A stretch of DNA of 60,909 nt from Escherichia coli. Its GTDB lineage: Bacteria; Pseudomonadota; Gammaproteobacteria; Enterobacterales; Enterobacteriaceae. A program made the position numbers. Location of the stretch: NCBI RefSeq assembly GCF_003334405.1, contig NZ_QOWM01000019.1; one strand, 5' to 3'. Positions 12,001-18,000 of this stretch are shown one piece after another. The first letter of the stretch is position 1. Each line of letters opens with the position of its first letter.

Positions 12001-15000
12001 TTTTAACATTTCATATTTATAATTTGCTGTTTGTTTTCAGCCTTGCAAACTATTGATAATGAAATGTGTAAGATCTCTTGCAATGCGACCCATTTCTGAA
12101 ATACTCAGCTGATCAATTGCCGAAAAAATGGCTATCAACGTAAGTGTCAGTAATAAGACAACCACAATTGCAGACATGATTTCTTTATAGTTGTCTCTTT
12201 GCGTGATTTTGTTTTTCACTGTGGTCGCATGCATTTCAAATATGTTTATTTAGCGGATAACGTTAAAAATCGTTAATCAGTATGCTTAATATAACAGGCT
12301 GGAGAAAAGAGGAAATAGGACTGGTGCTTCAGTACTGAGCGGAGTTTCTTACAGCTGTAGGCAGAAGTTTATATCTTATAGTATGTAGTTTAATTTAATC
12401 CATGTGAGCAAATTGCGAAATAATAGTCAATGAGGAATTCTTCTGCTGTGCGGATGACAGCAGAAGAAATGAGAAGAGGCATTAATTTGATGGTTCTAAT
12501 TCAACCGGAATACTTTTATAGCCAGGAATGCCACTTAATGGATCGTGGTTATCAAGTGTTAGCATGTGATTCGATTCTGGAAAATAGGTCACCAGTGAGC
12601 GGTCAGCCATAGGGTAAATGACCACTTTTAATCTATCCATGCGGCGTGAGCTGCGCTTACCGTCTGGCGTAAGCGCAATAAGATTAACTCTTTCGCCGTT
12701 TTTTACACGGCAAATTTTAGCTTGTTTAGCACTCATAAAGACCACATCTCGTTGACCGAATACCCCTCGATAGCGATCATCCATACCATAAATCGTCGTG
12801 TTGTACTGATCGTGGCTGCGTACTGTCGCCATGACCAGCTTACTGTTAAACGCTGAAGAGGGATCTTCTAACAGCCCTTTGCTGGTAATGAAATTAGCCT
12901 TACCTGACGGCGTCATCCAGCGCCTTTCAGCAGCTGCATTTATCAGGTGAAAACCACCGGGATGACGGATGCGCTGGTTATAGTCGGCGAACTCTGGCAG
13001 CACAGCTTCAATGTCATTGCGAATGCGATCATAATCTTCCACCAGATACTCCCAGGCTACCACGCTCTGGGGTAGTGCTGCCTGCGCGATTCCCGCGACC
13101 ACTGCACACTCTGATTTCAGCATTACACCGGCGGGTTTTAACACGCCACGCGAGGCATGAATCATCGACATTGAATCCTCAACGGTTACCGCCTGCGCAC
13201 CGTTTTTTTGCATGTCAATCTCGCTACGTCCCAGGACCGGCAGAATATAGCTATGCCGTGCGGTCAACAGATGAGAGCGGTTAAGCTTAGTGGCTACGTG
13301 TACCGCCAAATCTAATTGCGTTAACGGTACAGCGCTCGCTTCCCGATCTGGCATTGCCAGCGCAAAATTGCCCCCCATGCAGATCAATGCTCGAGCCTGC
13401 CCCGTACATATTGCTTGCATGCTGGCAATTGCAGCATGTCCAGGTGCATGAGGTGGGGTGAAGCCATAGCGCTCACCCAGACGAGCCAGAAACTCTGCAG
13501 ACGGTTTCTCGGTGATACCGACGGTTCGGTCGCCCTGTACATTAGAGTGTCCACGTAGTGGGCAGATACCCGCACCAGGCTTGCCAATGTTACCTTTCAT
13601 CAACAGCAGATTGACCAGTTGCTGTACGTTCTGGGTACCATGTTCGTGCTGAGTGATCCCCATTCCGTAACAGATAATGGTGCGTTCGGCAGCGGCATAT
13701 GCGTCAGCCAGTTCGGCGATTTGTGTCTGACTTAGTCCAGAAATACGTTCGATATCTTTCCACTCGGAATTGAGAACGTCACGGCGTAGCTCGTCAAAGC
13801 CGACGGTATGCGTTTGAATAAACTCGTCATCAAGCAATGAAGGCCGACCTGCGGCGCTTGCAGCATCATCGCGCTCAATTAACAGGCGCATCATCCCCTT
13901 GAGCAACGCCATATCGCCACCAATGCGCACGTTATAGTAGGCACTGGCCAACTGAGTCTCAGAGTTCGTCAGCATTTCAAACGGGTTTTGCGGTGCGGTA
14001 AATCGCTCCAGGCCACGTTCCTGTAGAGGATTGATGGCGATCATTTTCGCTCCCCGTTTCACTAAAGCGCGCAACGAAGTCAGCATGCGAGGGTGGTTTG
14101 TACCAGGGTTATGCCCAATGCAAATGACTAAATCGCACTTCTCAAAGTCTTCCAGCAACACGGTCCCTTTACCTACACCGATACTCGCTGCCAAACCCAC
14201 GCTTGTCGGTTCATGGCACATGTTGGAGCAGTCGGGAAAGTTATTGCTCCCGTATTCACGGGCAAAAAGCTGATAAAGAAAGGCAGCTTCATTGGAAGTG
14301 CGGCCCGAAGTATAGAATTCAACCTGATTGGGATCACTATAGCTTTGAAGGCGTGCGCCAATTTCGTCGAAAGCTTGTTGCCAGCTTAATGGCTTGTAAC
14401 AGTCGCTGACGGCATCATATTTCAAAGGCTGAGTGAGTCGCCCCGCAGCCTCAAGCTCGTGGTCTCCCCAGGTAAGTAATGATTGAACCGTATTCTCAGC
14501 AAAGAAAGAGGCGTTTACCTGCTTATCCGTGACTTCCCAGGCGATTGCTTTTGCGCCGTTTTCACAAATGTCGAATGACGCACTGTGCTTAGGATCTGGC
14601 CATGCACAACCCGGACAGTCAAAGCCCTCTGGCTTATTCATGTCAAACATGGCAATAACATCCTGGCGTATATCCATCTGCTTACGTACTGCATTCGCTA
14701 CGGATTTAACAGCACCCCAACCACCTGCAGCACCCTGGTAGGATTCAATTTTTTTCTTCATCTACTTATCCTGTGTGGAAATGAATTATTAGGATTTGTA
14801 ATAGCGATGATGCACAGTACATACAAAGGGATTATCGCCAACATGGATATATAAGAGTAGGGGACTACTCTCTTTCTATTTTTAATCTATTATCGTTAAA
14901 CAATAGATTAAATACGATAAGTTAAGCATCATCTCTCATAGTGTTTAAATTAACATATTTTTCAATATAAAAAATAAGACTCTGGCTTCAATTGTGCGCG

Positions 15001-18000
15001 GATTTTCTTACAGGTGTAGGCTAATAGCCTTCACAAAATAATTATCCGCGCAATTTTCGTGAATGGAGCGCATAGACTAAGGTCAAAATCACAATTATTC
15101 ATAGATAAAAGTGACACCAATGACTGACTGGACGGTTCCGGCTGAAACCTTGTTTCCTGTTTGTCCATAGGTTGCGCTTAAACCCAGAGGTACTTTGCTT
15201 TTATTTACTGTCCCCAGGGAGACATTTTCTCCCGTAGCCAGTATTTTTCCATTACGCATTAGAGTGACACCCACTCCCGATGCTTTTGTTGCATCAGGTG
15301 CTGTGTTAGCAAACACTTGTCGGCTACTGTCAGTGGTGGCACCCGAAAGATAAAATGAGAGCTTTTGTTCGCTTGAGCAATATACGCCAAGGGGTATTTC
15401 TGCGCTTCCAGGAAAGTCCGGGAGATCCACGGTGACATTACGACTATCAACGGTGCAGCCGCCTGTTGGCATAACAACATTGTTATTTGAAATAATATTC
15501 CACGTAAAATTACGCGGATTTCCGCTTCCTAATGTTGCAATTTTATACATATGAATACGGGCAATGACTTCCCCCGCTTTTATGACAACTCCACCGGCCG
15601 CCCCAACTGGGGTAATATAGAGTTTTAACGGTAATGGCATCGGTGTCTTATCACCAATATCCAATACGTTGGTATTTGTCGCCAACGGGAAGGGGTAGGT
15701 CACATTATTCCAGTACAGCGATCCTTTATATGACTGTAGGGAGCCTGCGAAAGCTGAGCCTTGTACCAGGTTTATATGATCAGTGTCGTACCAGCCACCG
15801 TAATCATTCCAGCAACTTATATGCTGAGACAAGTCTACAACCAGATTCTGGCCCGGCTGTATTACAGGGTCGAGATTAACATAAACAGAGGTTGTACCTG
15901 CTCCAATACTTGACCCGCCATCGACATTACAACTGAAGGCAAAAACTTTGCCTGCCATTAATAGAAGATAAATACCGAACAGGACCTTTATACTGATTGT
16001 TTTACCCATGATATATCCTAAGGTTAAAAATTGATTTAAAAAGAAGGCTAAGAAAATCGAATCGACGTTATTGCCAGGTGTAGATCACATTGATTAGCGC
16101 CTCGATCGTTCCCTGGCTTGCGTTTCCATTCACCGTGATAGCTCTTGCCTTAAGTGGAAACTGTGCATTACGAGTGATCTCATCAACAATAACCGTTTTG
16201 CTATCGCCATTTTTTAACGCAGCATCCTGGTCATCCCTCAGCTCTATCTGAATATTTTCGGCAGTACCTTCATTTTTGTAATAACCCGTATTGTCAGTTG
16301 AACCTGTCACGATTGCCGTCACTGCACTTGTTTCAACCGGACAATCGGTTAATGACAAAGTAATATTGTGCCAGCCAGATGCAGAACCAGGTTGTTGCAG
16401 ATTGCGCGTATAAAGATCCCCGAGATTAACGTTAGCTTCTTTGGTTTGAATAGTGCAGGGTTTAGCGACTACCCGACCATTAACAGTGATAGTGACATCG
16501 GCGGCCTGGAGAGTTGCTGTGAATAACGCGCAAAACGTAGCTAACAGGAACCTCTTGTGAAGTCTTTTCATATCTGACTCTGATTATTGAAATTCAAGGG
16601 TAAAGGTTGCCGAAGCCCTCACCAGTCCCGGATTGACGGACTTCTGAGTTGACTTCAGACGAGCGGAGTAAGGCAAAATATTGTTCTGTTCTGGTACCAG
16701 TGGGATCCACTGCATCCCGGCATGAAGATCATTCAGTTTCACCGGACGCATATTTGCGTCCAATATTTCTATACCCAAACCGGAGGCCGTATTGCTTCCT
16801 TCATCCAGTTTCAACAAAGTATTATTTTCTGCATCCTCAATACCGTTAAATGCAACCCGAACCCCCGTTGTCCCTTTGCTGCATTCACTTAACGTAATCT
16901 GAAAAGGGACGGCTGGACTTGTGCTACCGGTCGTTGGAAATTGTCTGGCACTGTTTTTTTGGAGATCTACGGTAAAATTAAGCGAATCCGATGAGACTGT
17001 GCAGCCATAATCGAGGACGCGCCCGCTAATTTTAATAACGCTATCTGCGGATAAAGCAGAATAGGTGGTTAACCCCAGACATAAACCGAGGAAAATAATG
17101 TTATTGTATTTCATAATCTATTGTTCCTTAGCGACAGATTGCTGTCTGCTGGTTCAGTAAGGTACCAGGAGAAACTTCAGGAAGCTTGTACTCGACAATA
17201 CAGTTTGAGTTTTTATCTTTGCCCCATGAAACCTGTAATTGCCCTGACTGTGGAAGTCCAGTCAGATAAACCTGACCATTTTCCGCGACAATGCTGCCAT
17301 TTTTATTCTCTCCGTGTGTGACAATTGCACCGAATGGAACGCTCTTATTACCGTACTTCAACGTCATTAATACTTTCCCGCCGATTTGTGCATTAAATGT
17401 TGCTCTGGCAATAGCACCGTGAGTTGGGATGACAGTGACCACGGTTTCATCCAGTTCAACATTATCTGCAAGGGAATTCGCGTTAAGAGCAACACGGTTT
17501 TCTCTATATTCTGTCGCAAATGGTAATATGGCATAGCCACGCCAGTCGGTATGAATTCCGGTCTGGTTCTCTATTTTGACATTATCAGCACCAGGAGCCT
17601 TAACCAGAACCATTGTGTCGCCCAGCGGCTGTCCAAAGGTGATGCCATCAGCATGAGCAATAATCCCACCACTCATTCCGTAATAAATCTGGCTGCTGTC
17701 ACCACTCCGACTGTAACCGACATTAGTATTACCATAAGCTCCACGATAATTAAGAGAACTGTAACCACTGGTGCCAGACGATGTATTACCTCCGTGGGTG
17801 TTACCGACCTGAACGCTATAATTCAGGTTATTATCCGGCAGCAGAGTGCCATAAACCCCCGATAGATTGGTCATGCCGCCTTTCAAATCGTTTGACATAC
17901 TGTAACTGGCGTTTGAATTACGAAATGCCGACTGACTGTCTGTACGCATCCAATGACTGAAGGGAACATTAAGCGTAAAAGCGAGTAAATGATCCCGATC

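Follow-up and report, generated by a model that had tools for sequence, protein, structure and literature searches.

The stretch of DNA analysed here (the window) comprises 60,909 bp of an Escherichia coli contig (NZ_QOWM01000019.1) and contains an acid-resistance locus with two near-identical 18-bp imperfect inverted repeats, which we examine as binding sites (EvgA boxes) for the response regulator EvgA. The genes concerned all lie on the minus strand. ydeP (12482..14761) encodes a putative oxidoreductase of acid resistance, and is identified by its open reading frame, by the RefSeq annotation of identical DNA and by the NCBIfam equivalog NF007406, against which YdeP scores 1834.8 bits (cutoff 1473). 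It is followed by safA (12037..12234; open reading frame and RefSeq annotation of identical DNA), whose 65-amino-acid product is a connector protein that activates PhoQ, and by ydeO (11201..11962), which encodes an AraC-family activator of gadE (open reading frame, RefSeq annotation of identical E. coli DNA, and NCBIfam NF007407 at 605.7 bits). Upstream of ydeP is the fimbrial gene ydeQ. ydeO is co-transcribed with safA as an operon (bioRxiv 10.64898/2026.05.06.723403), and a ydeP-safA-ydeO operon is also spoken of in some papers. Over the 4.1 kb surrounding both boxes the sequence matches E. coli chromosomes at 100% identity, and this segment occurs in 5395 of 5426 complete genomes of the species. 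Six matches to this chromosomal locus were also seen on E. coli records classed as plasmids.

Written as plus-strand 18-mers, the two boxes are TTCTTACAGCTGTAGGCA at 12346-12363 and TTCTTACAGGTGTAGGCT at 15005-15022. They differ at two of their 18 positions: position 10 (C/G), which is the second base of the central pair, and position 18, the last (A/T). Because the genes are read from right to left, the first box stands upstream of safA and the second upstream of ydeP, both in minus-strand orientation. In the direction of the genes, the box of the safA-ydeO promoter reads TGCCTACA-GC-TGTAAGAA. It is sited in the ydeP-safA spacer, 112-129 bp upstream of the safA ATG, with its better half-site on the promoter-near side. 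The box of the ydeP promoter reads AGCCTACA-CC-TGTAAGAA and precedes the ydeP ATG by 244-261 bp. The original prediction held that the boxes flank ydeP, with each one upstream of a transcription unit, and the open reading frames and RefSeq annotation bear this out. It had further claimed that the shared 16-of-18 motif occurs only twice in the window, and a pattern scan agrees: a search of both strands of the 60,909 bp with TTCTTACAGSTGTAGGCW, allowing up to three mismatches, returns exactly two matches, which are these boxes. The number expected from 100 dinucleotide-preserving shuffles was 0.07, and none of the shuffles yielded two. The notion that two AT-rich intergenic sequences merely resemble each other by chance, which has nothing in its favour beyond the shortness of the motif, is statistically refuted by this result. 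It is also opposed by matrix scores above the shuffle distributions and by conservation of the sites in thousands of genomes, both described below, and we consider it vanishingly improbable.

The EvgA site is said to be an 18-bp inverted repeat, TTCYTACA-N2-TGTARGAA, reportedly described in the work of Masuda and Church from 2003 and of Itou et al. from 2009, and the ydeP and safA (b1500) sites are presumably among the original members of the EvgA-box set. A domain search identifies EvgA as a NarL/FixJ-type response regulator with a LuxR-type C-terminal helix-turn-helix, and dimers of this family bind inverted repeats. Measured against this consensus (TTCYTACANNTGTARGAA), the safA box has one mismatch and the ydeP box two. 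K-12 regions with other EvgA-dependent genes were scanned with the same consensus, at up to three mismatches. Matches were recovered upstream of frc, yfdX (two sites) and yegR, and in the emrK/evgA intergenic region; the frc site is a perfect palindrome (TTCTTACAACTGTAAGAA) and a perfect match to the consensus. Alongside ydeP and safA, these are the genes whose promoters a review gives as EvgA-bound (PMC8147483).

A position weight matrix was built solely from the five K-12 sites that lie outside the window, symmetrised, and applied to the full 61 kb. This ranked the safA box first (20.9 bits) and the ydeP box second (18.2 bits), with the next site at 11.1 bits. Across 200 shuffles the best score averaged 13.5, and the second-best never exceeded 16.9. 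The earlier proposal that both boxes fit the EvgA inverted-repeat consensus is thus upheld by the mismatch counts as well as the matrix ranking. The matrix scan detected no further EvgA box in the window. A third consensus match, at 11404-11421 inside ydeO, is the sole other window site with three mismatches or fewer; with three mismatches and 11.1 bits it falls below the mean shuffle maximum, and was rejected as a chance occurrence. In K-12, a sequence with two mismatches to the consensus (TTCTTACGCATGAAAGAA) was noticed inside the mdtE coding sequence (7887-7904 of region L004). Its TGTA core is broken, and it is probably also a product of chance.

Both intergenic regions were aligned from nine E. 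coli strains, chosen to span the identity range, whose lower end is 89% upstream of safA and 93% upstream of ydeP. Across the nine to ten alleles compared, the half-site cores are kept, the spacer and outermost positions are free to vary, and the distal flank diverges. Variation in the safA box is confined to the outermost distal base (T/C), with 17 of 18 bases invariant in the nine strains and in the most divergent allele. Here the alignment contains 23 consecutive invariant columns (GCCTACAGCTGTAAGAAACTCCG), and the 40 bp just upstream are rich in substitutions. In strain AST85, which carries the most divergent 40-mer found, the cores are untouched: of the four differences, three fall in the distal flank and the fourth at box position 1. 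In the ydeP box only position 2 and the two spacer bases (CC, CT or TC) vary among the nine strains, and the cores CCTACA and TGTAAGAA are invariant. Position 2 is G (AGCC) in the window and in K-12, and T (ATCC) in all eight of the other strains aligned; T is nearer to the EvgA consensus, and G weakens the match. Since this G is absent from those eight strains, the 16-of-18 identity of the two boxes is partly a matter of polymorphism. More broadly, the 40-mer around the safA box was found in 5371 of 5426 E. coli genomes and that around the ydeP box in 5322 of 5426, with the window's exact version of the latter 40-mer accounting for 1749 of about 5320 records.

A natural disruption of the ydeP box was encountered in one clinical isolate, E. 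coli JML285 (NZ_AP024114.1), where the IS21-family insertion sequence IS100 (istA/istB) lies inside the box. The insertion point corresponds to window positions 15011-15015 and is marked by a 5-bp target duplication, ACCTG. At the left junction ATCCTACACCTG abuts TGTCAACG, and at the right junction GTGACA abuts ACCTGTAAGAA. IS100 sits exactly between the half-sites, which are now some 2 kb apart, and this allele represents a ready-made natural operator knock-out.

The position of the ydeP box relative to its promoter can be derived from published work. The ydeP leader is 178 nt long, and a leader probe extends from -178 to +10 from the start codon (PMC11210196), which places the transcription start near window position 14939. 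An extended -10 element (TGtTAATTT, hexamer 14952-14947) is found at the right distance from this start and no good -35 accompanies it, an arrangement typical of an activator-dependent promoter. If transcription begins at 14939, with an uncertainty of +/-2 bp, the ydeP box spans -66 to -83 and is centred at about -74.5. The safA upstream region contains an extended -10 (TGtTATATT, 12296-12288; hexamer 12293-12288) in the same register as that of ydeP, and a safA start with the same box-to-start geometry is predicted near 12280, 46 nt ahead of the safA ATG. We also observed a 7-bp hairpin, AGAGTAG-TCCC-CTACTCT, at 14854-14871 within the 178-nt ydeP leader, which is invariant in the nine strains.

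The EvgA boxes at ydeP and safA-ydeO are already known. Every gene known to be under direct EvgA control has been found to possess an EvgA binding site, and the ydeP promoter serves as an EvgA reporter (PMC4283999). The targets of EvgA include inverted repeats at both yfdX and yfdW (PMC3720670), and EvgA activates ydeP (PMC11210196). The safA-ydeO operon promoter is activated by EvgA and repressed by YdeO and PhoP (PMC5619816; bioRxiv 10.64898/2026.05.06.723403). The reported repression of safA by these two proteins lends some weight to the idea that the repeats are recognised mainly by a factor other than EvgA, be it YdeO, PhoP, H-NS or a different NarL/FixJ regulator such as RcsB. This family includes members with similar, TAAGAA-like half-sites, and FimZ, NarL, UhpA and RcsB all match the EvgA sequence. 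However, the motif co-occurs specifically with genes given as EvgA-bound, it is not found elsewhere in the 61-kb window, and the literature credits EvgA with activating both promoters. We therefore judge recognition chiefly by another regulator to be very unlikely. For EvgA binding and activation we rely on the literature; the present analysis shows the motif itself, that it is unique within the window and recurs at other EvgA-dependent promoters, how it is conserved and where it lies. On this combined basis, the two 18-bp imperfect inverted repeats are very probably EvgA operator sites at the ydeP and safA-ydeO promoters. The suggestion that they explain the co-regulation of ydeP and safA-ydeO is likewise supported, by the recurrence of the motif and its conservation among strains, together with the published reports of EvgA binding and activation.

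Several points weigh against this assignment. The distal half-sites of the two boxes (TGCCTACA and AGCCTACA) are imperfect. The sites used to train the matrix were located with the same consensus that served for scanning the window, making the matrix test partly circular; the placement of these sites before the right genes is independent evidence. evgAS does not lie in the 60,909-bp window. It is present in K-12, whose two boxes are identical to those of the window. With respect to promoter geometry, the safA start is placed solely by its register with ydeP, and a generic promoter scan puts the ydeP -35 at 14991-14986 (TTGAAG) and the -10 at 14969-14964 (TATATT), which would move the box to about -56.5. 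This second candidate promoter (14991-14964) was rejected on three grounds: it misfits the reported -178 leader, its safA counterpart has no -10 at that place, and its supposed -35 is not conserved, two of its bases being changed in strain E04.

These observations suggest a model in which mildly acidic pH would lead the EvgS sensor kinase to phosphorylate EvgA. An EvgA dimer would then occupy each inverted repeat, centred about 74-75 bp ahead of the start, its two subunits contacting one TTCYTACA half-site apiece, a dimer geometry that we infer. Bound EvgA would activate a weak sigma-70 promoter consisting of an extended -10 and no good -35, with the phospho-EvgA dimer upstream of the polymerase expected to recruit RNA polymerase in a class-I-like manner. 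Class I activators contact the alpha-CTD from sites centred near positions such as -61.5, -71.5 and -82.5. In this way ydeP and safA-ydeO would be switched on together by EvgA.

The similarity between the two upstream regions extends well beyond the boxes. A local alignment of the ydeP and safA upstream sequences covers 107 columns at 68% identity with a score of 74, compared to 23.6 +/- 3.5 (maximum 36) for shuffled sequences. In gene orientation the alignment starts at box position 2 and stays gapless over about 100 bp, after which a single 1-nt gap occurs. On the minus strand, the aligned segments occupy 12256..12362 at safA, where they take in the box, spacer, extended -10 and predicted start, and 14916..15021 at ydeP, where the same elements recur with the start near 14939 (as placed by the leader). 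Of the 90 positions downstream of the box, 53 match in register, compared to a shuffle mean of 24.3 and maximum of 41 (0 of 20,000 shuffles reach 53). Upstream of the box, identity is at the random level (9/40), and it is precisely at the box's distal edge that the homology begins. An alignment that omits the box still scores 44 against 19.8 +/- 3.3 for shuffles (z = 7.3). No such similarity was seen between other EvgA-box promoter pairs from different loci (z = -1.4 to 2.0). The emrK and evgA pair reaches z = 4.0, and here the two sequences flank one box that both genes share. As a second duplicated pair, the neighbouring promoters of frc and yfdX were considered and rejected (z = 1.6).

The near-identity of the two boxes thus reflects a ~107-bp homology of the whole promoters, and since this homology reaches from the box as far as the start site, duplication of one EvgA-dependent promoter is the most likely origin of the pair. 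Judging from sequence comparison, the ydeP and safA-ydeO promoters are probably paralogous copies of one ~107-bp EvgA-dependent promoter module. Taken to its extreme, duplication could account for the boxes by itself: they would be alike only because both promoters descend from one ancestral segment, and the 18-mer would be a passenger and not a selected protein-binding site. The inclusion of the box in a ~107-bp stretch of 68% identity and the 53 of 90 in-register matches downstream of it both sit well with this idea. Against it, the box is the best-conserved part of the homologous segment (16-17 of 18 positions, versus ~59% elsewhere), the same 18-bp motif stands at four unrelated EvgA-dependent promoters that have no common flanking similarity, and strain variation avoids the half-site cores. 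A passenger origin fails only as the sole explanation, and as such it is highly improbable; a duplicated segment can also be functional. Most simply read, one EvgA-dependent promoter was duplicated and both copies retained its functional part, from box to start. If so, this branch of EvgA-controlled acid resistance was wired by local promoter duplication, not by two independently evolved sites. Beside the known boxes, the promoter-module homology and the IS100 disruption in JML285 are minor additions, with the duplication providing a small example of regulon growth.

We also looked for the box beyond E. coli. The closest YdeP proteins outside Escherichia come from Edwardsiella (four contigs resembling E. 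tarda or E. hoshinae), with 85-87% amino-acid identity. The Edwardsiella gene sits between moaABCDE and yfaE-nrdBA (nrdAB) and has a 141-bp upstream region. Neither safA nor ydeO accompanies ydeP at this locus, and within 14 kb nothing has fewer than five mismatches to the EvgA box. It follows that the box is tied to the regulatory setting in Escherichia, not to ydeP itself. An identity of 85-87% is unusually high for this taxonomic distance. Together with the lack of the box, safA and ydeO in Edwardsiella, it suggests that ydeP moved horizontally, with EvgA control acquired later in Escherichia.

A scan of 100,044 species genomes with TTCTTACAGSTGTAGGC gave 44 loci, about the number expected by chance (roughly 70 by our own estimate). 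These were single matches in unrelated taxa, save for one mislabelled E. coli contig, and leave no phylogenetic footprint. The scan covered one genome per species and returned nothing labelled Escherichia or Shigella, although the safA box is identical in phylogroup B2 strains such as Nissle; the representative may differ or the scan may be incomplete. The mislabelled contig, JARKOR010000108.1, is a 13-kb record from a Candidatus Nanosynbacter sp. metagenome-assembled genome, and matches window positions 4133-16972 at 99.2% identity across 12.8 kb. Almost certainly, this contig is E. coli DNA that was mis-binned into a Saccharibacteria genome.

Two further features of the locus were noted. A candidate (leaky) terminator lies on the minus strand at 12438..12468, 14 nt past the ydeP stop codon, and consists of a perfect 12-bp stem with a 7-nt loop. 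The predicted RNA folds at -17.6 kcal/mol (z = -4.3; none of 200 shuffles folds as well), and the hairpin is unchanged across the nine strains. Its U-tail is weak, and it was not called in a terminator scan; it may limit read-through from ydeP into the safA promoter. An Rfam scan of 11000-15600 found no family. Base composition also differs along the locus, with 35-38% G+C in safA-ydeO and its flanks (11000-12500) compared to 47-54% in ydeP (12500-14500). This contrast is consistent with safA-ydeO being separately acquired, probably H-NS-silenced DNA.

It is through these two boxes that the EvgS/EvgA cascade of acid resistance is entered, with EvgA acting through YdeO on GadE, and through SafA on PhoQ/PhoP. 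They are biologically important, yet they are textbook features of the E. coli K-12 regulon and nothing new as such. Their general design is shared with other NarL/FixJ operators, including the NarL 7-2-7 site, the RcsB box and the UhpA site, which likewise consist of two short inverted half-sites 2 bp apart, but differ in half-site sequence and in the regulators that bind them. The closest characterised homolog of EvgA is BvgA of Bordetella, which recognises inverted heptads resembling TTTCCTA. BvgA sites resemble the window boxes in having inverted half-sites with TTC(C/T)TA, in being bound by a phosphorylated NarL/FixJ-family dimer, and in lying upstream of the core promoter. They belong to another organism and regulon, however, and BvgA promoters typically have extra lower-affinity sites reaching to the -35, where the matrix scan found no second box at the promoters studied here. 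The nearest comparison is with the remaining boxes of the E. coli EvgA regulon (emrK/evgA, yfdX, frc and yegR). These have the same length, the same cores (CTACA and TGTAAG), the same free 2-bp spacer, and the same placement upstream of acid-induced genes. The window boxes differ from them in their weaker distal half-sites, with TGCC and AGCC in place of TTCY, and the ydeP and safA pair is the only one among the EvgA-promoter pairs compared to add some 90 bp of promoter homology to the shared box.

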